From an uncultured Verrucomicrobiae bacterium (GTDB taxonomy: Bacteria > Verrucomicrobiota > Verrucomicrobiia > Limisphaerales > Palsa-1400), in the NCBI GenBank assembly GCA_963702845.1, contig OY969763.1, forward strand, positions 1,984,001 to 2,048,000: a stretch of DNA of 64,000 nucleotides, written 5' to 3'. Below, piece by piece: positions 1 to 16,491 of this stretch. Under the pieces are notes generated by a model. That model searched no databases. It had not been told where the DNA came from and worked only from the letters and a program-made list of their open reading frames with translations. Positions within the stretch are counted from its first letter, which is position 1. Each line of letters starts with the position of its first letter. A program made the position numbers and the translations under genes.

Positions 1-1696
1 CCGAGATGTGGTTCGTGGTCGGTTTGACCTTCAGCGCCTTTTCAGCCATTTGACGATTTAAGACAAACTGTCTTATTTGCTTCAGGTGCTTACCAACAAT
101 TTGTCTGTGCTCAAAATTTCTGAGCTCAGCTTCGCGGGTTTCGATCTCTTTCTGAGGATCAGCTTTGTTGAGTCCGTCCAACTGGGCTGTTAGCGCTTCG
201 ATAATCGGCTGTAGCTGCGGTGTTGGAACGGAACGCATGGGCACCGTTGTGACAGGCGACTTATCGGTAATCGACTTCAGTATTTGTGTTTGAAAGCCCT
301 TCGCGTTTGCAACGAACGAGGCGACAAGCTTCTGCTCGCTTTCGTGTTCTGCTTCCAAGAGCTGATAAACCGAGGAGTTTTCATCAAAGAAGCCGATGTC
401 GAGTTGCCCAATTTTCCGGTGAACGCCTTTCAACTGCTGCTCGCAGGACTGCATGTTCTGTTTAGAGTCGTCGTTGAGGAAATTCCAATACCTCTCGAAC
501 AACTTGATGGCGTTCTCTTGCAATTCTTGATGGCAAAGCAAGCAATGATCGCCTTGCTTAGGATAAATAGTCCGGTCTTCTTCGTGAGTCAGCGCGTGGG
601 CTTGGTGGATAAACTCTTGCCAGGAACCAGAGCCAATCTGTGGGAACAGTTCGTTTTTGAATGATGTCGCGCCCACGAGTTCCGATCGTGTTTTGGCAGC
701 GTTGAAGTCGTCGATCAGTTTCTGGATCTCTTTTCTGGATTGAGTCCCGAGCGTCTGAGCAAGCGCATTTATTTTGGTAACTGAGTTCTGTAGGTCGCGA
801 ATCGCTAAGGTTTTCTTTCGTACTTCGGCAGGGATGTTCAAGGAGCGGAATCTGGCGATCTCCTTTTTTAATCTGTCAATTTTTTGTTCGTCTGCCTCGG
901 TTAACTTTCCCAGCTTCTCCAACCCATCAAGGTCTGTTTTTGAACTCAGAGCAGCGATCTTGGCCCTAACGTCGGAATTTCCTGCGAACTTATCCGAAAA
1001 GTCGTTTTCTTGGTTCCAGTTATCGATGCTGCTTTGCACATAGGAACCAACCTGGTCGCATACTTCGGCTAAAGACGTAAGATATTCGAGCCCGAGCGGG
1101 GAAAACTTGAACTCGTTTTCTTGGGTTAGGTGCGCACTAATGCTTTTCGTGTCATGCACATAAAATTGCTGTAACATCGGATGGTCATCATCGACATTGA
1201 AAGGAAGCTTTACGGGTCCAGCTTTCGTTTTTAGATGAAAGACGGCTTGTTTGGCGGTTTTCGATGCCTTGGGATCGGTGATATTGTGAAGAATTTCTTT
1301 GTCGCCACGAGTGAAACACGCATTTCCAAATAACCTTCCGTATCCAGATTTTCCGGTGCCGTTCGCTCCATAAATGATAGTGAGATGATCGCTAAAATCT
1401 AATTGTTGGCCATCAATCAAAGCATTGATGTTTTGAGTGCCCGTTATGGATGCGAGAAAAATCTTCTCTGAAGTCTTTTTTCCTTCCAGGGTTACAGCTT
1501 TTTGCAGTCCTTCTAGCTTTATGCGCTCATTTTTATTCTTTGTCACACCCGCATCTTCAAGCAGGCATTCGCCCATATATTCTATATCCGTGGGCTCTAT
1601 TTGCTCCCCACGGATAATAAGGTCTAGGGCGTATTGTTCCCAATATGGAAGTTTTTTAGCTTTGACCCAATCCAGTAGTTCTTTTGTGACATTCAT
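1..1696 (-). CDS. Rad50/SMC-like (AAA_13/RloC-like) ABC ATPase with zinc hook; 3' end runs off the window; absent from the ORF track
   Basis: Manual translation from ATG at 1696: MNVTKELLDW...NINALIDGQQLDFSDHLTIIYGANGTGKSGYGR (Walker A). The same frame gives YPKQGDHCLLCHQEL (CxxC) at ~521-565. The track lists no terminated ORF in this frame, consistent with it staying open to the edge. Confidence 0.85.
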   Translation of the reverse strand, partial: MNVTKELLDWVKAKKLPYWEQYALDLIIRGEQIEPTDIEYMGECLLEDAGVTKNKNERIKLEGLQKAVTLEGKKTSEKIFLASITGTQNINALIDGQQLDFSDHLTIIYGANGTGKSGYGRLFGNACFTRGDKEILHNITDPKASKTAKQAVFHLKTKAGPVKLPFNVDDDHPMLQQFYVHDTKSISAHLTQENEFKFSPLGLEYLTSLAEVCDQVGSYVQSSIDNWNQENDFSDKFAGNSDVRAKIAALSSKTDLDGLEKLGKLTEADEQKIDRLKKEIARFRSLNIPAEVRKKTLAIRDLQNSVTKINALAQTLGTQSRKEIQKLIDDFNAAKTRSELVGATSFKNELFPQIGSGSWQEFIHQAHALTHEEDRTIYPKQGDHCLLCHQELQENAIKLFERYWNFLNDDSKQNMQSCEQQLKGVHRKIGQLDIGFFDENSSVYQLLEAEHESEQKLVASFVANAKGFQTQILKSITDKSPVTTVPMRSVPTPQLQPIIEALTAQLDGLNKADPQKEIETREAELRNFEHRQIVGKHLKQIRQFVLNRQMAEKALKVKPTTNHIS

Positions 1697-1795
1697 AATT
1701 ACAAAACGGACGGACCCGCCATCAATGAGAGGCTGCCAGTTTTAGTTTATTTTACAGTAAATAAGACTGAGTGCATATGGAGTGCGAACTCAATA

Positions 1796-1824
1796 TTGTA
1801 CAGCGTCTGTGCTTCTGGTAATGT
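1796..1824 (+). promoter_or_regulatory. sigma70-type promoter (TTGTAC-N17-TAATGT, extended -10 TG) for a leaderless HTH gene
   Basis: Same motif and spacing at 5389-5417 and 7359-7387, each ending 6 nt before the ATG. Confidence 0.65.
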
Positions 1825-1830
1825 TGCTGC

Positions 1831-2157
1831 ATGATCAATAGGGAGGCTCTAGACGAACTTAAGACGATCTGCGAGCGCATGGGGCACCTATGCGGGGATG
1901 AAGAAGCTCAAAGGATAGGTGAGCGAATTCTGAAGTTCATCATCAACTCAGAATATCTTCGGCCTCCGGAGTTGCTCTCGCTTGAGCAATCCGCTTTCGA
2001 TTTGATAAAAAATTCGAGCACCTCGCCTTCCATCCGAGCAATTACTGCCGCTATCGGACTGTCGTCTTCACGATCTGGATCTCGTGTTGTGCAAAGTCTG
2101 ATGCGGAAGCGACTCATTTGTCGCAATGCTGAGGGAAAGCTCACAGTCGCTCGATAG
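1831..2157 (+). CDS. LexA-type winged-HTH protein (no peptidase domain) with small N-terminal helical domain
   Basis: SPSIRAITAAIGLSSSRSGSRVVQSLMRKRLI resembles the LexA N-terminal DNA-binding domain; homologous to 5424 and 7394 ORFs. Confidence 0.75.
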   Translation: MINREALDELKTICERMGHLCGDEEAQRIGERILKFIINSEYLRPPELLSLEQSAFDLIKNSSTSPSIRAITAAIGLSSSRSGSRVVQSLMRKRLICRNAEGKLTVAR

Positions 2158-2199
2158 TTGCCGTAGTCGGCAAAGGGATGTGTCTTGTTACGAGACCCG

Positions 2200-2490
2200 T
2201 CAATTTGATAATGTGTTGTCACGCCCTTCACGCGAGATTCGACCAAATCTACCACCACGTTCACGTTTGCGTTTTGGAACGACGGAAGCGTTTCGATTGA
2301 ACGGATATCGGTTGAAAATATGAGAGTGTGGGTCGATCTTTTTCCATACCTTGTCTAATGCTGATTTTAGTGTTCTGGTTCTACCTTCGTCCACGTCCGG
2401 CACCAAGTTCACCATTCGCGAAATAAGCTCAGATACAGGCGCTAATCCCCGGAGGTTTGGCGGGCAGCAAAGCGCCGAATTTTGGTAACT
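2200..2490 (-). other. Degenerate recombinase-tail / cassette junction remnant
   Basis: Minus-strand frame contains LVPDVDEGRT (cf. CPPQRDRPRT); GCCGAATT at ~2474-2481 echoes the junction palindrome; same position relative to an HTH gene as the other tails. Confidence 0.4.
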
Positions 2491-2708
2491 TAATCCGTGC
2501 GGGGGGCGAAGCTCGCCATGAAAACAGTTCTGCGTAACTTCAAGTAAAACTTGACACAGCCATATCGTTCGCCGAGAGTCGCACTACTTTCCCAATCAGC
2601 ACGAATTGAATAATCCGGGGATTCACCGAAGCGAATTGTTCAAGTGGAATCGACGCACCCTAACAAACTGAATATTCTTTCACCGATCCAATAACGAGAG
2701 GCAGGTTT

Positions 2709-4018
2709 ATGGCACATCCTAAAAAATCGAACAAGGATCAAGAGGCGACAGGGAAAAACCCGGAAAAACGAAAAGCAGCAATTGAGATTAAGGAACAAAA
2801 ATCGCCGGCGGTACGTTCCCACATATTTAAAACGTTTAAAACAATACCAAAAATTTATCTGGATGCTATTAAGACCCTTTCAGTCGACACAAAAAAGTCC
2901 CGACGACTGTTTGCCCAACTCAATAAGCACAAGGCTTCTGGAATTGTAAGAAACGTAAAACCATTGGCTGACTCGGTGCTTATTCCTAGCGGAAAGGACA
3001 CAGATGTAGTTGTCAGCAAACTGGGTCCGCCGAAAAATATTAAAATTCACGACGGTGGCGGGGGGCGAATGCCAAATGCTCAAGTGTATCTGGTATTCTG
3101 GGGCGATAAGTGGGCCAACAATCCCCCTTCCAATCCCTCGCTACAGGATATTTACGCTGATATCTCTGCCATACTCGGGAGTTCGTATCTTTATTCCGCC
3201 TTTCAATATAAACTGGGATGGAATGCCGGCGGGGCATCGCTGTCCAATGCCTGGATAGATAAACGAGGGGTGCCCAGTTACGATTTCACCATGGTTGACG
3301 TTAACTATGAAGCATGGCTGATGATGACAAGTGGGCCAATCAGCCCTGATAGCGACACAATAGTTTGCGTAATTATGGAACCTGGGGCCTCGCCGTCGGA
3401 AGATTTGCGTGGAGAGCACCAATGGAGCATTCAGCCAGATTGTCAGCAAATTCCAACAATGTGGGTGAAATATGATACACGCGAACGTATGTCCTCCACC
3501 TTTTCGCATGAACTGGTGGAAACGGTGACGGATCCATTGGGGACGGGATACAGGCGGAGCCGACCGGCTATTTTGATTGGAATGAGATTGGCGATGTATG
3601 CGAAGGTTTTGACGGCACAGTGAATGGCGTCACTGTGCAGGCTTATTGGTCTGCGAAAGATAATTCCTGTGTGATTCCACGACCGGTACCTGTAAAAGCA
3701 TGGCAGATTACTTGCATTCAGAAACGTGGGAGTCATAGCAATCCGAACGAAAACATTAAAGTGGTAGCTGGAATTCACATTCCTTCCGGTCAGAAGTTTT
3801 GGATGAAACAGGAAGAAGTTATGGCAAGAATAGACAAAGGGGATCAATTCTTCGTTGCCGGGGCCGATGGAAGCCAAGCGCAAGTTAAAGTCTTTGTCCA
3901 CTTCCCGCCTTGGCAGCCGCAAGGCAGTCGTTACATTGCAACCGTAGCCGACGACAGTACGGACGATAATCTGCTTTCGCTGCCAGACTGCCTGCAGGCC
4001 GATTTGCGTAATGGATAA
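2709..4018 (+). CDS. Phi-1/EXORDIUM-like HExxE-motif protein fused to C-terminal DUF3892-like domain; split by a 1-bp frameshift near 3545
   Basis: VYLVFWG and SHELVETVTDP in the first ORF; the second frame gives IQAEPTGYFDWNEIGDVCEG..VNGVTVQAYWS directly after TDPLGTG; C-term ITCIQKR..YIATVADDSTDDNLLSLPDC matches the DUF3892 pattern. Confidence 0.65.
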
Positions 4019-4075
4019 GTGATAAACACATCGAAATTAGACGGTCGCGGGGGACGCGCTTGCCGTTTAAAACAT

Positions 4076-4363
4076 ATCGACGCCTCTTTGATTAATTCCT
4101 AACGGTGTCAGTATCTGAAGTCTCACCACAACTCATGGCCGTCGCTAAGTCGGGGAGTTTTCCCTGCATATTTAATGCTATAATAAGGCCAAGAATTTTC
4201 CTCCACGTTCGAGGTCTGTCACGTTGTGGGGGACACGATATGCCGAATTCGGCAAATGGAAGTGTCGGAATGCCCTCTACTGAGAGCTGATTTTAACAAT
4301 AAAAAGTCACGAGTAAACACCGTTTGTCAAAACCACCGGTAAACACCTGTTAGCAGGTAAACA
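4076..4363. repeat. Junction repeat copy 1: recombinase 3' tail (4092-4235) plus 128-bp conserved arm (4236-4363)
   Basis: Direct repeat of 5756-6040; tail part also matches 7742-7885. Confidence 0.95.
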
Positions 4364-4413
4364 GTCCTGCGTTATGTTTTGTTACAGCGACCGAATGTGG
4401 TACAACAATCCAT

Positions 4414-5373
4414 ATGACTAAGGTCACATTGGATACCAATTTATTGATTGAGCTTTTCGATCTCGGTATTGAGGGGAAAACAGTTCCGGCACTCGGAAAG
4501 ATTTTTAATCACTGTTTTGATTTTCAAAATATCGATCTCAAGATTACGACAAAAGTATCCGACGACTTGTTGGGGGATCGCATCAAGGAACGGGCCCAGG
4601 CATTAAAGCTGCGTATCGATAATTTGTTTTCCGTGCTCGGGGCAGGATACGTGTCCATCGATGATTTACCGAGCGATCCGATCGAAAAGCTCAACTTCAT
4701 TGAGCTTCAGCGAGTGCTTTTTCCAAATCTCATCACTACCGACAAGCGATATAAGAACAAGATCAACGATGTTCACCATCTCCATCGTCATATTCGCGCC
4801 GGCCGAGACGTCTTCATTACAAATGATTCCGACATGTTGAAAAAGAAGGACGCTTTAAAAACAGCGTTTAAAGTCGTGGTGATGAGTCCAGAGGAATGTG
4901 CAAAGTATCTCGATGTAATAACCGCGAAAGAAAGTTATCCTTTCGAGAAACACGTAGGTCGAGCCGACTATCATTCCCCGGCACTAAAAGGTACGGTGAC
5001 CTTTGATTTCACCAATAACGATCATAAGTATACGATTGGGACTGATGATTGGATTTTTGAAACTCGTTGGTCAGAGTGTAGCGACGACGAAATGTATGCC
5101 TACAACGACGCTCCATCGATCCTAGCATTGGCCGTTGCGGAGAATGTTTCGAAATTTAAGGACGTACATGATTTTGAAAGGTATGACTCAACATCTCGTG
5201 TTCGCCAACCTCGGAAGAATGTAGATATTCTCGTTCTGAAGAATTCGAAGGGATATTTTGCTGCGGTAAAGATCTGCAATATTGAGCTCAAACGCCGTGG
5301 GGGAAATAAGAATGAACTGACGTTTGAATACGTTATACAACCGAATGGGACATCATCATTCAAAGGTCTTTAA
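4414..5373 (+). CDS. PIN-domain ribonuclease-like protein fused to a beta-rich C-terminal domain (candidate anti-phage gene)
   Basis: N-terminal VTLDTN and NDVHHL..DVFITND acidic PIN motifs; separate C-terminal domain starting SPALKGTVTFDFTNND. Confidence 0.75.
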   Translation: MTKVTLDTNLLIELFDLGIEGKTVPALGKIFNHCFDFQNIDLKITTKVSDDLLGDRIKERAQALKLRIDNLFSVLGAGYVSIDDLPSDPIEKLNFIELQRVLFPNLITTDKRYKNKINDVHHLHRHIRAGRDVFITNDSDMLKKKDALKTAFKVVVMSPEECAKYLDVITAKESYPFEKHVGRADYHSPALKGTVTFDFTNNDHKYTIGTDDWIFETRWSECSDDEMYAYNDAPSILALAVAENVSKFKDVHDFERYDSTSRVRQPRKNVDILVLKNSKGYFAAVKICNIELKRRGGNKNELTFEYVIQPNGTSSFKGL

Positions 5374-5388
5374 TTGATAGTGCCAGGC

Positions 5389-6040
5389 TTGTACAAAATC
5401 CATTCATCTGGCAATGTGTGCCGATGGCGGATGAACTCAGTGAAGAACACAAGAAGGAGCTCGACCATGTCCTGGAAGCCGTTCAGCAATTCCTTTCTAC
5501 CGAAGAAGGCAGAGTAGTTTTTGATCGGCTTGAATCAATTTCAAACGGTATTCAGGCGCGGCAGGGGATAGTTGAACTCTCGTCGCACGAACGTCAGGCA
5601 CTACGATTCATTCAAACGGAACAAAGAAAGGGTTGTAATCCCTCTGTGCGGCAGATTTCGAAATCACTTGGATTTAGATCTTCTCGAACTGGCCACAAAA
5701 TTCTGAAATCATTGCGGACGAAAGGAGTTATTCCTGAACCTGCCGCCGACGTCAAATCGACGCCTCTTTGATTAATTCCAAACAGTGTCAGAATCTTCTG
5801 TGTCACCGTTCATAGCACGCTCAAGGTTGGGCAACTTGCCTTGGCGGTTTAATGCTATAATCAGGCCAAGAATCTCCTCACAGGTTCGAGGTGTGTCACG
5901 TTGTGGGGGACACGATATGCCGAATTCGGCAAATGGAAGTGTCGGAAAGCCCCCTACTGAGAGCTGATTTTGACAATAAAAAGTCACGAGTAAACACCGT
6001 TTGTCAAAACCACCGGTAAACACCTGGAGATAGGTAAACA
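5389..6040. repeat. Junction repeat copy 2: HTH promoter, HTH gene, recombinase tail (5772-5912) and arm (5913-6040)
   Basis: 5389-5912 is a direct repeat of 7359-7885; 5913-6040 matches 4236-4363 at 120/128 positions (manual count). Confidence 0.95.
5424..5771 (+). CDS. LexA-type winged-HTH regulator lacking peptidase domain
   Basis: LSSHERQALRFIQ..NPSVRQISKSLGFRSSRTGHKILKSLRTKGVI aligns with the LexA DNA-binding domain; ATG 6 nt after a -10 box. Confidence 0.85.
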   Translation: MADELSEEHKKELDHVLEAVQQFLSTEEGRVVFDRLESISNGIQARQGIVELSSHERQALRFIQTEQRKGCNPSVRQISKSLGFRSSRTGHKILKSLRTKGVIPEPAADVKSTPL

Positions 6041-6098
6041 CTTCACCAGAATAATCGGCTTACATTGAAAACTACGGTTGATGTGAGATAATCCGTCC

Positions 6099-7346
6099 AT
6101 GTTAGGTCAACCGTCAATTTCTGATTATTATCGCCAACTCGAACAAGAAGTTCGCAGTGATGTTATGCGCGAAACAGAAGAACAAATCTTAGGAACGGAT
6201 CCGGAGGAGTTAGCCCAGTATATTTTTGAGAAATATGCACTGTCACCTATAGAGCTAGATGCTGACCGTGAACCATCGTGGGATCCGCAAAATTACTTAA
6301 AGACGATTTCCGCTCAACAACGCGGTAATTTTTATGGGAGCAGTGGAGATCTCCGAGATTTTCCATGTCAGAAAGTTGCGGTTGAAGTCCCAATATTGCC
6401 AAATCCAAAGCTGCATCTCATTTCTCAAATGCATGGAGCGTCGTATTCATTGAGTTACTCGCTCAGTGACTTTCATTGGGGACAGGATTCCGTTTCGATG
6501 TCATTTCCAACGAAAGACTATCAATACCAAATGGATGATGCCGCAATAGCACATACAGTTGAGAATCAATTGCGGACAATCCACGAAACGATTAGTTCCC
6601 GTAACCAGGCTATTGAGCAGGGCAACAAACAATTGCTGACACAAACGAAATTTTATGTTCAGCAGCGTCGAGGAGAAATTGAGCAAAATAAACAGAAGCT
6701 CGAGGCTCTTACCAAGACCATCGGCGTTTCTTTAAAGAAGAAGGTTCCTGCGGGTGCACATCCTGTTCGTATTTCCCATACTCCACTTGTTCAAAGAGTA
6801 AAACCAAAACCAACGTTACCCGAGCAATATGTCCTAGATGAGAACAAAATCGATGATGTCATAAATTTGCTCGATAATCAGGCCCGTAGCTTCGAACAGA
6901 CTCCCGGCGCGTTCAAAGCATTAGGTGAAGAAGATCTCCGAGATATATTACTGTCGAATTTGAATTCCGTATTTGAAGGCGCCGCGACAGGGGAAACCTT
7001 TTCAAAAAAAGGGAAGACGGATATTTATCTGAAAATTGCGAAGGGTCAGATACTCATATGTGAATGCAAATTGTGGGCAGGTCGTTCTCTTTACGAAAAA
7101 ACTATTGATCAATTGCGAGGTTATCTGACGTGGCGGCATAACTACGGAATTATGATTACCTTTGTTCGTAATAAGGATTTTTCAAAGGTGTTACAAGAAA
7201 CCGAAAACGCGATTCAAGAACACCCATCATATCTGAATGGATTAAGGAAGATTGGAGAGACACATTTTGTATCTAATCACAAAGTTGATGACGATACGAA
7301 GGAAGTGAAGATTCACCATCTTTTTTATCACCTATATTCGAGTTAG
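6099..7346 (+). CDS. Coiled-coil protein with C-terminal PD-(D/E)XK restriction-endonuclease-like domain (candidate anti-phage gene)
   Basis: EEDLRD...GETFSKKGKTDIYL...ICECKLW gives E...D...ExK spacing; own promoter-like TTGAAA-N16-GATAAT 6 nt before ATG. Confidence 0.75.
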   Translation: MLGQPSISDYYRQLEQEVRSDVMRETEEQILGTDPEELAQYIFEKYALSPIELDADREPSWDPQNYLKTISAQQRGNFYGSSGDLRDFPCQKVAVEVPILPNPKLHLISQMHGASYSLSYSLSDFHWGQDSVSMSFPTKDYQYQMDDAAIAHTVENQLRTIHETISSRNQAIEQGNKQLLTQTKFYVQQRRGEIEQNKQKLEALTKTIGVSLKKKVPAGAHPVRISHTPLVQRVKPKPTLPEQYVLDENKIDDVINLLDNQARSFEQTPGAFKALGEEDLRDILLSNLNSVFEGAATGETFSKKGKTDIYLKIAKGQILICECKLWAGRSLYEKTIDQLRGYLTWRHNYGIMITFVRNKDFSKVLQETENAIQEHPSYLNGLRKIGETHFVSNHKVDDDTKEVKIHHLFYHLYSS

Positions 7347-7393
7347 ACATCAGTAGATTTGTACAAAATGCCTTAATCTGGCAATGTGTGCGG

Positions 7394-7798
7394 ATGACAC
7401 AAGAACTCAGCGACGAGCAAAAGAGGGAGCTTGATCACATTCTTGAAACTGTTCAGCAATTTCTTGCTACTGAAGAGGGAAAGGAAGCCTTCGATCGCCT
7501 TGAATCAATTTCAAACAGTATTCAGGCGCGACAGGGGATAGTTGAGCTCTCGTCGCACGAACGTCAGGCACTACGATTCATTCAAACGGAACAAGGAAAG
7601 GGCCGTAATCCTTCTGTGCGGCAGATTTCGAAATCACTTGGATTCAGATCTTCTCGAACTGGGCACAAAATCTTGAAATCATTACGGACGAAAGGAGTTA
7701 TTCCTAAACTTGCCACTGAAGGCAAATCGACGCCTCTTTTATTAATTCCAAACGGTGTCAGAATCAGAATTCTCACCACAACCCATGGCCGTCGCTAA
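7394..7798 (+). CDS. LexA-type winged-HTH regulator (paralogue of 5424-5771)
   Basis: Near-identical HTH; TGA stop of the other copy is TTA here, so it reads into the convergent recombinase tail. Confidence 0.85.
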   Translation: MTQELSDEQKRELDHILETVQQFLATEEGKEAFDRLESISNSIQARQGIVELSSHERQALRFIQTEQGKGRNPSVRQISKSLGFRSSRTGHKILKSLRTKGVIPKLATEGKSTPLLLIPNGVRIRILTTTHGRR

Positions 7799-9313
7799 GT
7801 CGGGGAGTTTGCCCTGTTTATTTAATGCTATAATCAGGCCAAGAATCTCCCCACAGGTTCGAGGTCTGTCACGTTGTGGGGGACAACCACTTATTTTATT
7901 CCGATTTGCGATCTCATGAAACGGAGATTGGAGCTTTAATTCTAGGTTTTTTGCCGTTGCCTGCCAGTTCGAGGTAAGAGTTTTGAGCATTTCACGTTTT
8001 TCTTCTGGGATTGCCATTTGGTAGCTCAACCAAGCGTTTCCTGCCAGTTCGAGGAATTTTTCTACGCGACTCATATTTCGCCCGTTCGAGCGTTCACAGC
8101 GCGCTAGTTGTTCTTCAAATGTTTTCTGTTCAAGGAGCAGAGCCTTTTTCTTTTGCTCAAAGAGTTCTTTGTCTAACACCTGGTCTAAATAGGCGTCGGT
8201 CAGGCGACTGAGACGTTCTTTTGCTTGGCCTAGCTGCATTTTCAATGCCCCTAACTGGGCTTCACGTTCGCTCTCCCAGTTTCCCTTCAGGCGCTTAACT
8301 TCCGTTTTGAAAAATTCCTTTTCTTGATCGTTGAAAGTCATCAGTCGAATCAATTCTTCAATTGCCACGCTGATGTCTTCTTCTCGAAAGCTGGTTGCGG
8401 GACACGCTCGGGTGTGACAGCGATAGTAGGCATGGCCCTTTTGTCGCTCGCCGATGAGCGAGTATTCACATGTGGCGCAGCGAACCATCCTACGGAATAG
8501 GAACACATGACGCTGTGTTTTTGCGCCACATTTGCCCGAAAGAACCGCTTGGACGCGATCAAAGAGCGCTCTCGTGACTAGGGGCGCGTGAATGCCGGAG
8601 AATGTTTCGTCCGTTTTGCGTATGCGGATTAAGCCCATGTAAAACGGGTTGTTAAGTATAACTGACAGGGAATTCCTGTTGACGCTTCCGCCCTTGCGTT
8701 GCCGCAGTCCACGTTTTTCTAACTCGATGCGCAGGGCCTCCAACGAAAAGCGCCCGCTTCCGTAAAGTTCAAAGACTTGGCGGACAAGCGGCCCCATAAC
8801 CGGATCAATGGTTTTTGGCTGTGCTTTTCCGCGGTCAACATAACCAATCGGCGCTTGAAGCGGATATAAGCCTTGTTTCAGGCGGCCATAGAAACCTTTG
8901 CGGGTCTCTTCGCGTAGGTTGCGAATGTAGTCAGCGGCAACTACTGCCTGGATGTCGGCGGAGAGCCGCCCGCCTCGTGTTTGTAGGTCAATGCTTTCAT
9001 TAACAAAGTGGACTTCAACTCCTTGATCTGAAAGTTCACCGATTGCTGCCCAATCGCGCAGGTTACGCGCGCCACGATCGAGCTTGTGAAGAATGATTCC
9101 TTGAGCTTTACCGGTGCGCAGAAGTTTCAGTGCCTGGTTGAACACCGGACGGCCTTGTTTTGCTGCGGTTTCCATTTCCTCGAGCCATGTCGTGATTGTG
9201 AACTGGTGCTGGTTTGCGTAGCGAGAAATAGCGTCTCGCTGTTCCTGAAGCGACACGCCTTGCGTCCCTTGTTTTACGGTGGAAACCCGTATGTAGCCGA
9301 TATATCCCTGCAT
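7742..9313 (-). CDS. Large serine recombinase (integrase)
   Basis: YIRVST catalytic Ser motif, KLDRGAR, recombinase domain (APIGY, LNNPFYMG), Zn ribbon CATC..YYRCHTRAC, coiled coil. Confidence 0.97.
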   Translation of the reverse strand: MQGYIGYIRVSTVKQGTQGVSLQEQRDAISRYANQHQFTITTWLEEMETAAKQGRPVFNQALKLLRTGKAQGIILHKLDRGARNLRDWAAIGELSDQGVEVHFVNESIDLQTRGGRLSADIQAVVAADYIRNLREETRKGFYGRLKQGLYPLQAPIGYVDRGKAQPKTIDPVMGPLVRQVFELYGSGRFSLEALRIELEKRGLRQRKGGSVNRNSLSVILNNPFYMGLIRIRKTDETFSGIHAPLVTRALFDRVQAVLSGKCGAKTQRHVFLFRRMVRCATCEYSLIGERQKGHAYYRCHTRACPATSFREEDISVAIEELIRLMTFNDQEKEFFKTEVKRLKGNWESEREAQLGALKMQLGQAKERLSRLTDAYLDQVLDKELFEQKKKALLLEQKTFEEQLARCERSNGRNMSRVEKFLELAGNAWLSYQMAIPEEKREMLKTLTSNWQATAKNLELKLQSPFHEIANRNKISGCPPQRDRPRTCGEILGLIIALNKQGKLPDLATAMGCGENSDSDTVWN

Positions 9314-9324
9314 GAAATTTGCTG

Positions 9325-9531
9325 TTACCCGGAAGGCGGGGTACAGGGTAACGTACCGGTACCAGCGGTCAACTGGCCCTTCTGTGGATTGGATTCGATG
9401 CGTTCAAAAACGCGCAACACGAGAGCCAGATACCGATGCAAGCTGTCCTCAGCTTGGCGCAATTCGTCTTCGCTTAAATCGGGATACAATTCACGAATTT
9501 GTGGAGTGGTTTTGTCCACGTTTAATGGCAA
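9325..9531 (-). CDS. Small helical hypothetical protein upstream of the recombinase
   Basis: IRELYPDLSEDELRQAEDSLHRYLALVLRVFERI; co-oriented, stop 11 nt before the recombinase start; true start uncertain. Confidence 0.6.
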   Translation of the reverse strand: MPLNVDKTTPQIRELYPDLSEDELRQAEDSLHRYLALVLRVFERIESNPQKGQLTAGTGTLPCTPPSG

Positions 9532-9537
9532 AGCACT

Positions 9538-9711
9538 TTAGTTGTCGTTCCCGCCCTCCTTTTTCGCGTTAAAGACGACTCCGAAGAACCGTAGCAAACG
9601 CACGGCCATTTTCTGCACCTGTTTGTCCGTAAGCAAAATCCCGAATACTTCTTTATAAGCGGCCTTGAACTCCTCGATAGCCTCGCGACCCAGTTGTTGT
9701 TGTGTTTTCAT
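9538..9711 (-). CDS. 57-aa hypothetical protein (below ORF-track cutoff)
   Basis: Manual translation MKTQQQLGREAIEEFKAAYKEVFGILLTDKQVQKMAVRLLRFFGVVFNAKKEGGNDN; resembles the N-terminus of the 1831 HTH protein. Confidence 0.7.
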   Translation of the reverse strand: MKTQQQLGREAIEEFKAAYKEVFGILLTDKQVQKMAVRLLRFFGVVFNAKKEGGNDN

Positions 9712-9739
9712 GTGTCCACATTAACGCGTGGAAAATACC

Positions 9740-9900
9740 CCGCCCAGACACGGCGGTATGCCGAATTCGACAACTTGTTCATTATCGTATGCTTGACAGA
9801 ATTATGAATATGTGTTATAAACCCACACTGACTGCGCCGGAATGCGCGGGTTTTTGTTTATAGGACTTGCCGAAAACGGCAAATGGCAGTGTCTGGGCGG
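9740..9900. repeat. 34-bp imperfect inverted repeats (9740-9773 and 9867-9900) flanking a promoter
   Basis: CCGCCCAGACAC at 9740-9751 is the exact reverse complement of 9889-9900; 27/34 match overall. Confidence 0.85.
9793..9821 (+). promoter_or_regulatory. Near-consensus sigma70 promoter TTGACA-N17-TATAAA with extended -10
   Basis: TTGACA 9793-9798, TG 9813-9814, TATAAA 9816-9821. Confidence 0.75.
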
Positions 9901-9951
9901 ATAGGCCCAAGCTGCGTAATCTTCATCCTGAACTCTCAGGGAGTTTTCACT

Positions 9952-10311
9952 ATGGCTTCTCGTCGTCTTTCAAATTACCTGGTCTCAGAAAGGAAGCGCC
10001 TTGCTCTTTCACAAGAGGAGGTGGCTTTCATGCTGGGTAAAAAGACAGGAGAGCAGGTATCGCGTCATGAGTGCTTCTCGCTGGTGCCGACGCTCGAGAC
10101 CGCGCTCCAATACGAAGCGATATACAAAAAACCGGTCAGCGAACTGTTCGCCGGGCTGTTTGATAACGCGCAAGCGGATGTTGCTGATCGCGCGGAACTA
10201 TTGTCAAATCGCGAGCGAAGGACAAAGGGAAAGGAGCGGAATGCCATAAAGAAGCAGCTGTTTGAGGGTCTCGCCTTCGGGGAAATTCTGAAAAATCATG
10301 GGCAAAAATAA
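9952..10311 (+). CDS. XRE-family HTH transcriptional regulator
   Basis: LSNYLVSERKRLALSQEEVAFMLG..VSRHE..PTL; SD-like AGGGAG upstream of ATG 9952. Confidence 0.85.
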   Translation: MASRRLSNYLVSERKRLALSQEEVAFMLGKKTGEQVSRHECFSLVPTLETALQYEAIYKKPVSELFAGLFDNAQADVADRAELLSNRERRTKGKERNAIKKQLFEGLAFGEILKNHGQK

Positions 10312-10827
10312 ACACCAACTTCAACGTGTTCTCGGGCTCGCCGTTTCGAGTCGCGGCTTTGGCTATGCGCTCTTTGAAGGAGAGAAATTGGTCAATTGGG
10401 GCTTTGCCTCAACTAAACAAAAGCAGAATGTCAACGCGTGGTGTGCAAAGCGGATCGAGAGAATGGTTAAACAGTATGAGCCGGATGTGATTGTAATCGA
10501 AAGCGTATTTGCAAACGGTGCTGTCCGTTCGCCGCGTGTTCGCCGGCTTGCGAAACAGATTGAAGTGATAGCAGGTAGACGACAGTCGCGCGTTAAATCA
10601 TTTTCGAAACTTCACGTGATCAAATCCGTCTGCGGAACCGTATCAGCGACGAGGCACGACATGGCTGACAAAGTTTCCAAACTATATCCAAACGAACTCT
10701 CATTTCGTTTACCCAAGCGGCGCGGAACCTCGTATCCGAAGACCGTCGTATTCGCATGTTTGAGGCTGTGGCTTTAGCACTTCTCGTAGTAAAAGGACGA
10801 AGCTGCACGCCTGTGGATGATTTTTAG
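10298..10827 (+). CDS. RuvC/RNase H-fold resolvase-like protein, 1-bp frameshift near 10730
   Basis: RVLGLAVSSRGFGYA..PDVIVIE pattern; the C-terminal SEDRRIRMFEAVALAL motif is in the adjacent frame ending at TAG 10825-10827. Confidence 0.65.
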
Positions 10828-11079
10828 TCGGTTGCTGAACTGGGGGCGAAGTGAAAATAGCGCACAATTTTTATGTTTTTCGTTTTTGTGCTTGCTGGAA
10901 AAACCTACCAGCGTATAAGGGTTCCCACTAAATTAAAGTTCGCAACCAAAACGAAAGTAAAGCCAACAAAAACAACAACCAAAGAATCCGTTTCTGAATT
11001 CGGTCTGACGCCCCAAACAACGCTGCGGTTTCCACTTACGGGCTTCTTGAGCTGATCCATTAACGGTGGTTCTATTTCT

Positions 11080-13734
11080 ATGAAATTTGGAGCGTTTCTT
11101 ACCACACTGATCCTTTCTGTCTTCGGTTTCCACGCCGCTAATGCTGATGTCGTTGTTGGCGGAGCTGCAGTCGTACCTGCGATTTGGTCGCAACCTTTAA
11201 GCCAGACGACCGGATTCGGGACTGACGTGACTTTCACAGCCGGTGTCACTGCGGACAGTCCGACATACCAATGGTTCAAGAACGGAGCGCCTCTCGCCGA
11301 CTACAACAACATCGCGGGATCGAGCTCGGCCATGCTTCATGTCGTTGGCGCGGCGCTTGATGACGCGGGAAGTTACAGCCTAATCGTGACGAGCGCGGCG
11401 GGGCTTTCCAGCACCAGCACTGTTGCGACGCTATCAATTAACCAAAAACTCGTCTTCGCAGACGATTTCGAAAGTGGGCTGGCCAACTGGAAGGCGGGCT
11501 ACGATTCAGTAATGTTGAATTGGGATACGAATGTTAACCATACGCCTGGCGGCACCAGCTCGGCATTGGCGTCGGGAAAACCGAGCAGAATGCATCATAG
11601 CCTGGCAAAGAAACTGCACGGTCGACTGCAACTCTCGTTCTGGATGTATGACGACGGAGTGAGCAAGATGGCTGTAGGAGAGGTCTGTGGCTATTCGGGC
11701 GAGAATGGCTATGGTCGCTACGCCATTCACGACGGATTCGGCCTGATCCAGTCACTGGGCATTGGTTACCGTTCCTTCACCGGAACGAACGTTGAGGCGC
11801 GCGCCGAACAATTGGATGCGACGAAGTATCAGGCACATGTTTTGCGAGGACCGGGACATGGCTGGTTCAACCTGAGTGCGCCTGGAGCGCCGACCCGGTC
11901 CCGCGGCTGGCATAAGTTTGAGATACGGCGGTCGAAGGACGAGCACATTATCGACTTCTACGTCGACGGTGTTCTTGGTCGGCGAATCCGCGAGGCGCGG
12001 TCTGCGGACCTCGACACCATTATCGTGGGATCGTGGGGAGCACTGGGGCAAGGGGACGGGTCGGGAGCAACTGGAGTCTGCAGCTTTGATGACATTGCGC
12101 TTGAGGCGTATCCCGCTACGTTCGACTACGAATCATCGGCACAGAGTGGTCCCGTGCCCACGATCATGCAGCTTCGGGAAACCGGCACGAACGGGGCAGT
12201 TTCCGGCGTCACTGCGGTTACGGCTGTGGAACTGGCTGGCTCGGCCGCACAAGCCATAGCCGGCAAATGGGAAGCGATAAGCACGGGCATGCTCGCGACA
12301 GACGTTCGCGGACAACTTGCGTATTCGATCACCGTTCCGTCAGACGACGTATACCGCATTGAAATCGAAGGTCGTGAAGAGTCCGGACGCATGCCCGAAG
12401 TAGATTTACCGCTCAACGTGTCGATGGACGGAGAATATTTGGGCCATTTCAATTTGGAGTATCACAGGCAGACGAGCGGCCGCGTTCATTGTTTCACGCC
12501 GTTCATCCGAGCGGGAGTGCACAACGTGGTGATCGAATGGGACAACGCCCGTCCTCGCCGAGCGCTTTACCTAACTGCTGTACGCCTGCAATCGCTGCCG
12601 AGTTCTGTCGTCGCCAACAACGGTATTAAGCAGTGGGTCGTTAATAGATTGTCGGCTGAATGCGGACTGGAAGTGATTCCCCGAGCAAGCAAGGTTTCTC
12701 CAGTCTGCATCGAAGGCCGGGCGCGCTATCATAAAAATATGACCGTGCTGGCGGGCGAGCAGTATCCGCTCGCGCCAGTGACAGCCCATCACGGTACGGG
12801 ATATCGCTGGTATGCGAACGTTCCGTTGTCCGCTACGAACGTGACCGCAGTGGAAGTCTCGTATCAAAGCGGAGTTGTATCCGAAACCAACACCATTGTG
12901 TGGGAGCCGACGGACGTTCTCACGGAAGCCGATATGCAGATTCGAAAAGGAGATTCACTAATCTTCAACGCGGTTCCCGCAGGTGTTTCAAACGGCACGT
13001 TCAGGATCAGCATCAATTCGCAAAGCATCAATGCTGACGCGTTGAGCGTGGTTCCGTACCGGTTTTCTCAGCCGGGCACCTACACTGTCACCGGAACGTA
13101 TCTGAATTCTGGCGCATCGCGCTCGATAAACGTGCATGTGATTGACGCTTCGCTGCCCCGCATTGTGGCGGTGGTGGGATGGCGAGCGCATTGGTATTGC
13201 ACGAATCTGCCGCCTGAAGTCGTCATAGACAGCGATCCTCGAATATTACTCGGCACTCCGCAGGGCATACGTCCAAAGCGAGTTATTCAGAAGACCGCTG
13301 CGCCTGCTGCGCCGCAGGGTGAAAACGCACGTGATTTCAACATTCGCAACGCCTCGACTGAAGAACCTCGGTATGTCGTGGCGCGATTGGGAACGAATGG
13401 TCCGATCATGGCCAGCGCGACTATACAGGGTATCAAGTTTGCCATTCCACCTGAGACGCAGCTGCGAGTGATGGACCGTAAAGAGGATGGCACGCAACTC
13501 ATCGAAGGTACGTATCTCGTCAATCCGATGCTGCCGACGCTGACTGTCGGTTTCCGAATCGCGACTGCCGGAGTGACTTTCGATGACGGCACGGTCCAGA
13601 AGCTTTTGACGCCGACAGACTTCGACGGCCTGGGTCTTTGCAGGCTTCGTTTCGTGCGAAGCACGGGCGTTCAGGGAAGCGTCTGTCACGACATGCAGGT
13701 GTACGAGAATGGCGTTCTGATCAATCACAAATGA
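11080..13734 (+). CDS. Secreted multidomain protein (signal peptide, Ig-like, lectin/CBM-like beta domains)
   Basis: Signal peptide ..HAANA; Ig-like SQPLSQ..YQWFKNG..DAGSY; FADDFESG lectin-like start. Confidence 0.8.
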   Translation: MKFGAFLTTLILSVFGFHAANADVVVGGAAVVPAIWSQPLSQTTGFGTDVTFTAGVTADSPTYQWFKNGAPLADYNNIAGSSSAMLHVVGAALDDAGSYSLIVTSAAGLSSTSTVATLSINQKLVFADDFESGLANWKAGYDSVMLNWDTNVNHTPGGTSSALASGKPSRMHHSLAKKLHGRLQLSFWMYDDGVSKMAVGEVCGYSGENGYGRYAIHDGFGLIQSLGIGYRSFTGTNVEARAEQLDATKYQAHVLRGPGHGWFNLSAPGAPTRSRGWHKFEIRRSKDEHIIDFYVDGVLGRRIREARSADLDTIIVGSWGALGQGDGSGATGVCSFDDIALEAYPATFDYESSAQSGPVPTIMQLRETGTNGAVSGVTAVTAVELAGSAAQAIAGKWEAISTGMLATDVRGQLAYSITVPSDDVYRIEIEGREESGRMPEVDLPLNVSMDGEYLGHFNLEYHRQTSGRVHCFTPFIRAGVHNVVIEWDNARPRRALYLTAVRLQSLPSSVVANNGIKQWVVNRLSAECGLEVIPRASKVSPVCIEGRARYHKNMTVLAGEQYPLAPVTAHHGTGYRWYANVPLSATNVTAVEVSYQSGVVSETNTIVWEPTDVLTEADMQIRKGDSLIFNAVPAGVSNGTFRISINSQSINADALSVVPYRFSQPGTYTVTGTYLNSGASRSINVHVIDASLPRIVAVVGWRAHWYCTNLPPEVVIDSDPRILLGTPQGIRPKRVIQKTAAPAAPQGENARDFNIRNASTEEPRYVVARLGTNGPIMASATIQGIKFAIPPETQLRVMDRKEDGTQLIEGTYLVNPMLPTLTVGFRIATAGVTFDDGTVQKLLTPTDFDGLGLCRLRFVRSTGVQGSVCHDMQVYENGVLINHK

Positions 13735-14630
13735 GCCGGTCTCTCGTCATCCGTTGTTTGCTAAGCCTGCATGTCTGCGCTGCGGGAGTGCTTCCTTGTC
13801 GGGCGCTTGAGCAGTTGTCGACCAACTTTAACGGCCAGGCTCTTTCGGTGCGCGTCTTAGCGAAAAAACTGGCCTCAACCGACAATCGCAAGGTGTGGCT
13901 TATTTGTGACAGCGACGCTGAGATAGGCGTTCGGCTTGATGCTGCGCGCACACTGGGTAATGAACTGAAAACGGCAGATGTCCGGGCCTTGTATGATTTC
14001 CTAAAAGCTCACCCCGACCGTTCGGAGCGGAATCTCGCCGGCTTGCGGTTTCTTAAAAATGAGGTTTTCGGAACGTTAATAGAGCAGACCGTCCCGCCCG
14101 CGGGGCTGGCCGAAGCCATGGCTGTGGTGTGGGCGGATCATGAGCAGGACATCGTCGCGCGAGACTATGCAATTCAACACATGGCTGTTTGGTACGATGA
14201 CAATCCCGAACGAAAGGATTCCGATCGGGCGCTGATTCGCGACGTGCTCCTGCGGGCTGCGCACGAGCAAAGCAGCCTGGCCGGAACGGCTCTTATCGGA
14301 CTGCATCATGTCTCGGCATTTGATTCCGACATTAAGAGCCGAACTGTAGATGACCTCGCGTTCCAAATGGCAGCTTCAATTTCTATGCCGGATACCGCCA
14401 GGATTACCGCAGTGCAAATCTGCGCACAACGCCGAATTGTCGCGGCGACTCCGGTAATCGAGCAGATCTTGAAGGACTCACAGAACCCTACGTTGCGTCT
14501 TTCCGCCATGTCCGCATTGAACACGCTTCGCGGGGCAACGGGCGGTTACAGCGACATCGAGCATGGCGCGCTCAGCGATTTTTCCGCTCGATCTCGGAAC
14601 CAACAACGTCAGGACTCAACACCGTTCTAA
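13731..14630 (+). CDS. Exported HEAT/ARM-repeat-like protein
   Basis: ATGA overlap with upstream stop; helical repeats VRLDAARTLG, ARITAVQI, LRLSAMSAL. Confidence 0.65.
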   Translation: MSRSLVIRCLLSLHVCAAGVLPCRALEQLSTNFNGQALSVRVLAKKLASTDNRKVWLICDSDAEIGVRLDAARTLGNELKTADVRALYDFLKAHPDRSERNLAGLRFLKNEVFGTLIEQTVPPAGLAEAMAVVWADHEQDIVARDYAIQHMAVWYDDNPERKDSDRALIRDVLLRAAHEQSSLAGTALIGLHHVSAFDSDIKSRTVDDLAFQMAASISMPDTARITAVQICAQRRIVAATPVIEQILKDSQNPTLRLSAMSALNTLRGATGGYSDIEHGALSDFSARSRNQQRQDSTPF

Positions 14631-14643
14631 TCGAGTACCACGC

Positions 14644-16491
14644 ATGAATAAAATAGCATTAGCAGCAATCGTCACATTGCTGGCCGTTCTTCGGTCTGAG
14701 GCGCGGCTTCCAAATGGTTGCGCGTATGATAGGAGCACCAACTGCACCGTTGAGCCAAGCTTCGCGCTGTCACTTGCCGCGCCAGCTGGCGGCAATACCT
14801 GGCCTATCTACAACTACGGCGACACGGTTAATGCCAAAGCGTTAATCGTGACCAATTGGGGCGAACTTACGATCTTCACGACAAACGAAGACTGCTCTTG
14901 GTTTCCGACGCTGGTTCTCACCAACTCGCACGTGGTATCGTCTTCCTGGATCGCGGTCGGACCCGATTCGAGCTATACGAACACTGGCTCCGGACTGACG
15001 GCGAGCTTCACTGCTACGCACGGCGTCGGCGTCGGCGATATTACTTTTTATCTGACGTTCAGCAATAGTTTGCCATGTACGAACCTTCAGGCGACTTCTC
15101 TCCACGTTCATTACCAAGCGCAGACCAACGACGTGATCGAAGGCAATTGCGCGAGCGATACCCCGGTGCTTCTCAGCGCCTGGGGGTTTGACCCGCCGTT
15201 ATCGCTGTGGTCGGGCGAGAGTAACGCTAATGACAGCGTAGGGACATATAACGGGACGTGGATCGGCTCGGCTAGTTATACGAACGGGATTGTGGGGGCA
15301 GCATTCTATTTTAACGGCAGCAGTTACGTGTCATGTGGCACAAATGTAGGCAACTTTGGGACCAACGATTTTACAATTGATTTTTGGGTCAAGACGACAC
15401 AAACCGGCTCATCATACATTGTCGGCAAGCGTCCCATATGCAACCTCGCCAATTTGTGGAATGTCCGCATGGTTGACGGTCACCTTTATCTTGAATCGAT
15501 TGAAAATACCTCTGGCTATGCGTTTACGACGCTCATTTCTGATTCCACCGTCAACGATGGGGTGTTTCATCATGTGACCATCACGCGAGATGGCGCGTTG
15601 CAGGCTATATACATCGACGATGCATTTGACAATGCAATCGAATCGGATGCCATCGCCAATCTGAACAATAATGTGGAACTATGGGTCGGACATAATGTCT
15701 GCGGCGGCAGCTTCGTTGGCGTTGTCGACGAACTCAGCATTCTTACTGGCAGTGCCAGTCCTTGGGTTGGCAGTCGTGGGCAAGGCCCTCTTGTTATTAC
15801 GAACATCCAGCAGAGGCCGAGTCCGTGGGGCAACAGTCTTCAAGTGGACAGTTCGACGAACGCCAGCTTGAGCTATCGGTATTTCGATGAAGACGGAATC
15901 GCGAACATCAACTGCAAGTCCGGTGCTGTACGATTTTGGATAAAGCCGAACTGGAACGGCGGAACAGGCCCTGGTAGTCCCGGCAGACTGATCGAAATGG
16001 GCGACACCAACTCGACCAGCGGCTGGTGGTCTCTTTCGGTGAACTCTTCCGGAAATCAGATTTCGTTCCAAACCAAGTCCAACGGAAATCTCACCACCTA
16101 TTTTACACAGTCGATCAGCGACTGGAATTCCGGCTATTGGTACCACATCGTCCTCAACTACGCGGCTGATCAAACCGCGCTTTACACAAACGGCATCTTG
16201 GCGCAGACGGGGATCGGACTCACGAATTACCCGACCTTAGCCACTCGTGAGGCGTATGGCTTCAGTATAGGCAGCGACCACTCTGGAGCCAATCGTTCTG
16301 CTTCGAGATTTGATGAGTTCGCCACCTTCTGCGCCCCTCTGAGTGCAGAGGACATCCTGGATGACTATGTCAACGGTCTGATGAGTTCAACCGTGGGGGT
16401 TGGAACCGGTATTCCCGATTGGGATACCTACAACCAACTGCACGCCACAACCAATAACGGAGCACTCGAAGTGTTTACTCCGTTGAAGTAA
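14644..16491 (+). CDS. Secreted LamG/concanavalin-like jellyroll domain protein (two domains)
   Basis: Signal peptide MNKIALAA..; DFTIDFWVKT..VFHHVTITR..IYIDD and WYHIVLNY..LYTNG LamG motifs. Confidence 0.85.
   Translation: MNKIALAAIVTLLAVLRSEARLPNGCAYDRSTNCTVEPSFALSLAAPAGGNTWPIYNYGDTVNAKALIVTNWGELTIFTTNEDCSWFPTLVLTNSHVVSSSWIAVGPDSSYTNTGSGLTASFTATHGVGVGDITFYLTFSNSLPCTNLQATSLHVHYQAQTNDVIEGNCASDTPVLLSAWGFDPPLSLWSGESNANDSVGTYNGTWIGSASYTNGIVGAAFYFNGSSYVSCGTNVGNFGTNDFTIDFWVKTTQTGSSYIVGKRPICNLANLWNVRMVDGHLYLESIENTSGYAFTTLISDSTVNDGVFHHVTITRDGALQAIYIDDAFDNAIESDAIANLNNNVELWVGHNVCGGSFVGVVDELSILTGSASPWVGSRGQGPLVITNIQQRPSPWGNSLQVDSSTNASLSYRYFDEDGIANINCKSGAVRFWIKPNWNGGTGPGSPGRLIEMGDTNSTSGWWSLSVNSSGNQISFQTKSNGNLTTYFTQSISDWNSGYWYHIVLNYAADQTALYTNGILAQTGIGLTNYPTLATREAYGFSIGSDHSGANRSASRFDEFATFCAPLSAEDILDDYVNGLMSSTVGVGTGIPDWDTYNQLHATTNNGALEVFTPLK

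Follow-up and report, generated by a model that had tools for sequence, protein, structure and literature searches.

How does a row of short gene units come to lie behind a large serine recombinase gene, several of them closed by a copy of that gene's own 3' end? The question is raised by a 64,000-nucleotide stretch of DNA from an uncultured Verrucomicrobiae bacterium (GenBank assembly GCA_963702845.1, contig OY969763.1, positions 1,984,001 to 2,048,000; hereafter the window, numbered from its first letter), in whose first 9,900 nucleotides an earlier note had seen an integron-like cassette array driven by a large serine recombinase (LSR). Our analysis favours, with a probability of about 0.6, a serine-recombinase accretion array, in which units were inserted serially and site-specifically into the 3' end of the recombinase's own gene, each insertion replacing the tail of the enzyme. 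The features from which the argument starts are listed below, where T denotes the repeated 3' end of the LSR gene (about 165 bp), the breakpoint is position 7885/7886 (codon 476/477), M is a palindrome motif, and HTH and ORF stand for helix-turn-helix and open reading frame.

7742-9313, minus strand: LSR, 523 aa; Pfam Resolvase 3e-28, Recombinase 5e-15 and Zn_ribbon_recom 2e-07; resident recombinase and proposed target gene
7709-7885, minus strand: tail T of the working gene, comprising the last 47 codons and the 3' untranslated region and ending in the palindrome TTGCC-N6-GGCAA at 7709-7724; 7885 is the homology boundary with both downstream copies
5913-7885, plus strand: unit A, 1973 bp; palindrome 5918-5943, arm 5913-6040, cargo, HTH gene, then T
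6099-7346, plus strand: unit A cargo, PDC-S54 defence candidate (PADLOC 3e-80)
7388-7798, plus strand: unit A LexA-type winged HTH protein (LexA_DNA_bind 8e-09)
4236-5912, plus strand: unit B, 1677 bp; palindrome 4241-4266, arm 4236-4363, cargo, HTH gene, displaced tail 5753-5912
4414-5373, plus strand: unit B cargo, 319 aa, no match in Pfam, PADLOC or NCBIfam
5418-5771, plus strand: unit B LexA-type HTH protein (LexA_DNA_bind 9e-10)
2159-4235, plus strand: unit C; palindrome 2159-2184, three ORFs, displaced tail 4073-4235
2200-2415, minus strand: unit C small ORF, 71 aa, no family match
2709-3623, plus strand: unit C ORF of 304 aa
3620-4018, plus strand: unit C DUF3892 protein
1-2157: unit D, eroded, without a tail copy
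1831-2157, plus strand: unit D diverged HTH protein, its stop abutting the palindrome at 2159 (LexA_DNA_bind 0.0033, under the cut-off; 30-35% identical to the HTH proteins of A and B)
Running off the left end of the window, minus strand: unit D PDC-S06/AAA_13 ATPase, 863 aa in the full gene (PADLOC PDC-S06 8e-78; AAA_13)

Tail repeats and cargo units in the window

That the LSR tail recurs downstream of the LSR, as the earlier note had claimed, was borne out by three pairs of repeats: 5389-5912 and 7359-7885 (84.6% identity over 531 bp, spanning the HTH gene and the tail), 4073-4363 and 5753-6040 (85.8% over 295 bp, spanning the tail and the 128-bp arm), and 4073-4235 and 7723-7885 (90.3% over 165 bp, the tail). 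With the copies at 5753-5912 and 4073-4235 the window holds three co-oriented tails with identical left boundaries, encoding 47, 46 and 47 aa, and the LSR frame runs through both displaced tails without interruption until a stop codon at the corresponding position. The two junctions are base-for-base alike: the tail end ...GGGGGACA is followed, past the boundary, by CGATA and then by a 26-nt motif with the perfect palindrome core TGCCGAATTCGGCA. The cargo differs between units A and B and is set between the conserved arm and the conserved HTH-plus-tail segment. G+C content is 0.42-0.51 across the first 10.8 kb of the window and 0.55-0.57 beyond.

The sizes that the earlier note had given for units A and B agree with ours, and the layout it saw in both (arm, unrelated cargo, LexA-type HTH gene, tail copy) is supported by the repeats and by the domain matches. 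Its description of the two outer units holds as far as unit C ends in a tail copy and unit D has a diverged HTH gene; the boundary between them lies at 2158/2159, not near 2470, where the junction palindrome recurs directly next to the stop codon of the unit D HTH gene. Similarity does not fall with distance from the recombinase, as had been proposed, since identity to the real tail is 90% for the farther copy (4073-4235) and about 85% for the nearer. Unit C may be the original downstream neighbourhood of the LSR and not an insert. Its 71-aa ORF has diverged copies at about -4471..-4313 and -23870..-23658 relative to the window start; the three copies share 74-87% nucleotide identity over 105-163 bp, and each lies inside one of the genome's two islands. 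Promoter-like sites in the arms showed no excess (12, and 11.3 in shuffles), and a pattern scan of a collection of genome contigs found no relative of the window's HTH frame.

Recurrence at homologous loci and direction of insertion

We sampled 106 loci encoding relatives of the LSR, 26 from genomes and 80 from metagenomes, some of them duplicates of each other; they hold 64 distinct homologous LSR genes with 42-66% amino acid identity, and the titles of the metagenome-assembled genomes name Verrucomicrobiota, Blastocatellia and others. Copies of the locus's own LSR tail were found at 8 of the 62 loci with a near-complete LSR C-terminus and at least 1 kb of downstream sequence, two copies in L017 and one each in L010, L011, L044, L054, L062, L084 and L098. 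When the 64 distinct LSR genes were scanned at the DNA level, strong copies (E<1e-5) were present solely in those eight loci, all of them downstream and co-oriented; none was found upstream at the 64 loci, in 371 kb searched as against 379 kb downstream. Such confinement to the downstream side and the LSR strand argues against chance.

In the window and in seven of the eight loci the left edge of the homologous segment lies no more than a few bases from a single column of the protein alignment. This column is set between the family-conserved motifs PF.EIANR and GP..PRT, so that the boundary does not simply mark the place where conservation fades. In an AlphaFold model of the LSR (33-sequence alignment; mean pLDDT 80.8; long helices at 329-408) it lies in a loop (470-482) past the last zinc-ribbon strands, T corresponding to one helix (483-499) and a disordered end. 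Pfam and the model together place the protein in the LSR class: a resolvase catalytic domain is followed by a recombinase domain and by a zinc ribbon in which a coiled coil is embedded. The motif of the catalytic serine, YIRVST, is kept, and S11 is invariant across the 33 aligned homologues. Because the break comes after all canonical LSR domains and the tail copies of the window are open in frame, a swap of tails would probably be tolerated by the enzyme. Among named families in NCBIfam the nearest is XisF (100 bits, cut-off 375), followed by CcrB, CcrA and CcrC, all far under their cut-offs.

Two pairs of related loci allowed the direction of insertion to be read. The LSR bodies of L054 and L052 are 96% identical at the nucleotide level, and L054 contains a clean 2423-bp insert that starts at the breakpoint; past its second tail the locus is collinear with L052 for 1.9 kb, and the L052 tail resembles the distal tail of L054, not the one joined to the LSR body. 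In L044 and L038, whose bodies are 89% identical, the distal L044 tail is 85.6% identical to the L038 tail and the proximal one 74.7%. The foreign tail is thus the one adjoining the LSR body in both testable pairs, which implies that incoming DNA entered at the breakpoint, brought its own tail and displaced the resident one. The marks of a genomic island are present accordingly: a regenerated target, a co-oriented displaced fragment, and an empty site in a relative (L054 against L052; the distal tail is orthologous in L054 and L044).

A mechanism consistent with these observations would start from a resident platform composed of an LSR operon (two small ORFs and the LSR) and divergent HTH-like and RuvC-like genes. 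Its parts other than the LSR are, in the window:

9325-9531, minus strand: 'orf68', small ORF upstream of the LSR and co-oriented with it, no Pfam match
9538-9711, minus strand: 'orf57', small ORF upstream of the LSR and co-oriented with it, no Pfam match
9883-10311, plus strand: HTH-like protein, divergent partner (HTH_3 at just E 0.036)
10298-10777, plus strand: RuvC-like protein, divergent partner (Pfam RuvC 4.6e-05)

Circular incoming elements would recombine with the resident LSR gene at one point, codons 476/477, the LSR being the probable catalyst and the crossover lying at or near the breakpoint. Each incoming unit would carry its own T (47 codons, stop codon and terminal palindrome), by which the LSR frame would be restored with a new tail, and the old tail would be pushed downstream as a displaced fragment. 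Repeated insertion would stack the units, the newest next to the recombinase, and the units may be excised again as circles. They could be whole LSR elements of the same family or derivatives without an LSR body; those of the window would be modules of 1.7-2.0 kb in which the palindrome and arm are followed by a single cargo gene, the gene of a LexA-type HTH regulator and, last, T.

The platform is partly conserved. ORFs resembling orf68 are present at 68 of the 106 LSR loci and stand directly 5' of the LSR at 53 of the 96 that have more than 300 nt upstream, and tblastn found the HTH-like protein at 47 of the 106 and the RuvC-like protein at 30. At the position that we take to be that of the first catalytic Asp of RuvC, the RuvC-like partners (window 10298-10777 and 11 homologues) have A, H or D, mostly Ala or His, and hence may not be active nucleases. 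The LSR family itself is sporadic (a close homologue in one of 60 other related genomes, at 59%) and rare in viral contigs (two matches, 28% identity). A phage origin was considered and dropped on account of those two matches. A tRNA target was likewise dropped, there being no tRNA in the first 20 kb of the window and one, unrelated, across 17 loci; known RNA families were absent from 1-12000 at E<=0.1.

Origin of the units and rival explanations

Relics of a second LSR operon lie within the inserted unit at five of the eight loci (L084, L010, L044, L054 and L098). The L084 unit contains a second, truncated LSR, whose body is 47% identical to the first at the amino acid level and is joined at the breakpoint to a tail with 78% amino acid identity to the first; in L010, L044, L054 and L098 the unit holds a second orf68-like ORF. 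In L040 an internal piece of an LSR gene lies displaced behind the LSR. Units A and B of the window are free of any such relic. In view of the five loci the units look, at the level of sequence, like whole LSR elements or LSR-less derivatives integrated into the resident LSR gene, that is, like the products of accretion and not of integron-type capture. The data point to either the loss of a redundant LSR body after integration or the insertion of derivatives that already lacked one. Searches with PADLOC gave matches inside the units at five of the eight other loci and none in those of L011, L017 and L044:

L010 unit: NYN nuclease
L054 unit: RT_VI-type reverse transcriptase
L062 unit: GajA-like OLD ATPase
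L084 unit: Gabija (GajA 3e-248, GajB 5e-229)
L098 unit: Ppl/SMC-like ATPase

The palindrome M (TTGCC-N6-GGCAA flanked by GTGTC and AGAC) stands at every junction of the window, just past the LSR stop, and in two inverted copies upstream of the LSR:

9747-9772, minus strand, and 9868-9893, plus strand: two inverted copies of M at a spacing of 93 bp, in the interval from the LSR operon to the divergent HTH gene; 34-nt inverted repeat, 79% complementary

The copy at 9868 and the junction motif share 23 of 26 positions (score 18.5, shuffle maximum 14.5), and the core TGCC-N6-GGCA occurs six times within 2159-9868 as against 210 times in the whole 6.03-Mb genome. Each of the inverted copies at 9740-9900 overlaps a terminator-like hairpin; the two might serve as paired operators or bound a small segment able to invert. 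Across the closest clade (the window, L008, L009, L010, L047 and L067) M is found after the LSR stop, between the LSR and the HTH-like gene, and at junctions or insert boundaries. Past the LSR stop, tail homology runs as far as the outer edge of the degenerate palindrome and breaks off exactly there, and L067 has, relative to L047, a 2137-bp insert placed exactly after the palindrome past the LSR stop. In the same two loci (L047:9426-12255 and L067:3988-8704) the block made up of the LSR and a downstream segment faces opposite ways with respect to the HTH-like and RuvC-like genes, and inverted repeats of 22-32 nt (86-91% complementary) that contain M lie on either side of it. A simple inversion at the palindromes was considered as the link between the two and set aside, since about 70 nt beside the palindrome stays with the HTH side and the crossover point is not established. 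At L007:11640-11880 an insertion of about 190 bp relative to L045 has on each side a direct repeat of a motif of roughly 24 nt (...AAGTTTGCC.ACCTTTTATTTT...), which resembles the palindrome flank of L047 and L067. M could be part of a recombination site or an operator for an HTH protein.

Several points tell against serial insertion with tail replacement. The boundary in L098 lies about 30 nt further 3', a degraded second LSR of this genome (see below) breaks in the zinc ribbon and not at codon 476, and the feature is present at just 8 of the 64 loci. The first 54 nt of T have no excess of dyad symmetry (mean 6.05 of 8, against 6.08 in control windows of the same genes), there is no recognisable serine-integrase-type site at the breakpoint, and the sequence to the left of it differs between the LSR gene and the junctions, clouding what an enzyme would recognise. 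Tails of the same locus share 75-90% identity over 78-177 bp, a greater length than an att half-site requires, and homology-driven events or gene conversion could therefore have played a part. All that we say on catalysis and mobility we infer, and the origin of LSR-less units with a boundary exactly at the breakpoint, which the model leaves unexplained, is its weakest point.

A first rival is true integron-like capture. By this account the resident LSR would excise, capture and reorder LSR-less single-gene cassettes as circles, with the tail/palindrome junction as the cassette site and 7885 as the platform site, as the earlier note had in essence proposed. Units A and B, which lack an LSR remnant and share the same junction, arm and HTH-plus-tail frame around different cargo, would be explained well by it, as would the L054 insert, which has no LSR body, and the fact that, L084 aside, nine of the ten displaced tails border directly on non-LSR sequence at the breakpoint. 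Against it stand the second-LSR-operon relics at five of the eight loci, the shortness of the arrays (at most two displaced tails per locus across the 64 loci and the window), the failure of any identical cassette to turn up in two contexts, and the near absence of the window's HTH frame from 400 sampled genomes of the phylum, which gave two weak matches only (E about 9e-6). We regard integron-like capture as possible, if doubtful. The part of the earlier interpretation that stands is a fixed insertion point in the recombinase gene with stacked, tail-bearing units whose cargo is often defence-like; the capture and shuffling of single-gene cassettes is not supported. A similarly tentative standing falls to the boldest form of the idea, a serine-recombinase counterpart of the integron, in which a widespread LSR/orf68/HTH-like/RuvC-like platform with a self-renewing site inside an ORF might stack, excise and exchange LSR-less defence cassettes indefinitely, its C-terminal helix being swapped each time.

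By a second rival reading no dedicated site exists, the tails are leftovers of decayed paralogous LSRs or of Campbell-type homologous insertions within the tail, and the region is no more than a hotspot beside an integrase. Decaying LSRs do exist (L084, the internal fragment of L040, a remnant at -22 kb), the 78-177 bp of homology would suit such events, and site-like symmetry was not found. Random decay, however, would give varied boundaries, and those of the window and of seven of the eight loci coincide despite conserved protein and DNA immediately 5'; the tail adjoining the LSR body in L044 is foreign at 75% identity and thus a poor RecA substrate, and the copies are strictly downstream and co-oriented. 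We therefore hold this explanation to be improbable. Still less credit can be given to a reading in which M is the real recombination site and the tail a passenger between two sites, or in which M is an operator of the platform HTH protein unrelated to recombination, although the six copies in 2159-9868 (at every junction, after the LSR stop and, inverted, twice upstream), the same three kinds of place across the closest clade, the halt of tail homology at the outer edge of M, the position of the L067 insert and the opposite LSR-block orientation in L047 and L067 between M-containing repeats would all agree with it. M is missing from the LSR gene at the 7885 breakpoint, and a crossover at M would not duplicate the tail. 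Similarity between junction and upstream sequence was seen in the window only (two of two junctions, as against none of eight elsewhere, in the direct orientation), and a perfect palindrome of 16 bp would be more usual in a repressor operator than at a serine-integrase site. The comparison of junctions with upstream sequence, in which one further locus had too little upstream sequence, also led us to drop, as a general model, the idea that the LSR body and its upstream region (7886-9862) form a mobile insert, the motif match being absent at the eight junctions of seven other loci.

Relation to known systems and genomic setting

Elements of the staphylococcal cassette chromosome (SCC) insert into the 3' end of rlmH and regenerate it. 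Their integration at rlmH is described in an excerpt of PMC13739063, and the mobilisation by Ccr recombinases of tandem cassettes rich in anti-phage defences in an excerpt of bioRxiv 10.1101/2023.03.17.533233. The array resembles SCC and SCCmec in having a large serine recombinase, tandem units, direct repeats that regenerate the target end, and some units without a recombinase. It differs in that the target is the recombinase gene itself and not the housekeeping gene rlmH, the C-terminal 47 residues of the enzyme apparently being swapped at each insertion; in that the LSR is not a Ccr (CcrB 81 bits, cut-off 900; CcrA 67, cut-off 700; CcrC 63, cut-off 900); and in that the hosts belong to environmental phyla and are not staphylococci. 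Since splitting and regeneration here affect the gene of the recombinase itself, each insertion would change the C-terminus of the enzyme and recreate the adjacent site.

An island that splits a gene and supplies a replacement end leaves a displaced fragment that marks its far end, according to an excerpt of PMC4383910. The same displaced-fragment logic, as applied to islands in tRNA and tmRNA genes (Islander/TIGER), identifies the units here, and such islands too are often tandem; they differ from ours in carrying tyrosine integrases within the island, directed at tDNA, whereas most units here lack an integrase and it is the integrase gene of the platform next to them that is split. Accretion in the manner of cis-mobilisable elements (CIMEs), in which integration beside a related element leaves integrase-less derivatives that keep att sites, gives tandem composite islands. 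The likeness to integrative and conjugative elements (ICEs), integrative and mobilisable elements (IMEs) and CIMEs lies in site-specific integration next to a related resident element, in integrase-less derivatives and in tandem composites; those systems use mostly tyrosine integrases at the 3' ends of housekeeping genes, and the units described here are without conjugation or mobilisation genes.

Integrons rely on the tyrosine recombinase IntI, on folded single-stranded attC sites, on an attI site outside the gene, and on mostly promoterless cassettes read from Pc. The array shares with them a resident recombinase beside a fixed insertion point, the newest unit in proximal position, and adaptive, often defence-related cargo; it differs in its exclusive use of a serine recombinase, the location of the site within an ORF, units with their own HTH regulator, and apparent descent from recombinase-bearing elements. 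We found no tyrosine integrase and no attC, though no attC-specific model was run, and the junctions consist of a copy of the 165-bp LSR 3' end together with a perfect palindrome of 14-16 bp. The array is not an integron by any defining feature tested. The integron analogy of the earlier note is accordingly apt for the resident recombinase, the fixed site and the stacked, often defence-related cargo, and fails where units hold second-LSR-operon relics (five of eight loci) and their own regulators.

A full-text search of the literature returned no serine recombinase gene described as a target of elements of its own family, an earlier description being still possible; one candidate, PMC13439711, proved in the excerpt available to treat a different subject, genomic islands in Wolbachia prophages. 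If the recombinase does act at a site within its own gene, this would provide an extra route for the build-up and exchange of defence genes in little-studied phyla such as Verrucomicrobiota and Acidobacteriota, the cargo seen overall including PDC candidates, Gabija, a defence-type reverse transcriptase, a NYN nuclease and a CBASS-type system. The displaced recombinase tail would then be a simple sequence rule for delimiting such islands, and a landing site renewed after each insertion would be of interest for serial integration with serine integrases.

The same genome contains a second, older array 21-33 kb to the left of the window (C1:1950830-1962800; loci L002 and L003), beside a degraded LSR at -22164..-21194 whose N-terminus is broken and whose C-terminus is shorter. 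The presence of a single recombinase gene, put forward in the earlier note, hence applies within 1-9900 and not to the region 21-22 kb left of the window. The 3' end of the degraded LSR is copied at -33171..-32964, with M then following at -32954, and at -26021..-25980. Its cargo includes a CBASS-type set (SMODS/AGS-C, SLATT_6, E2 and ThiF-like), an M78 peptidase/HTH pair and an Mrr-type nuclease, and an insertion sequence (rve) lies at the far end of the array.

Each LSR of this genome sits just upstream of a cluster of Ig-like, HEAT-repeat and LamG genes, and the two clusters are paralogous. One is found at 11080-16491 in the window and the other from L002:14918 to L001:8994 on the left, where it runs on into the gene of an RHS-repeat protein of 2207 aa. 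The platform may have a target upstream of clusters of this kind, or the duplication may have taken in a larger block. Further out, 70-90 kb to the left of the window, locus L005 resembles a mobilisable element, with a primase, Replic_Relax, a TrwB-like coupling protein and RadC, and also encodes two DNA methylases, a Shedu-like protein and an AbiGi-like protein. This region holds the palindrome motif at -86248 and, at -77610..-77437, a 67%-identical fragment of the unit D HTH gene.

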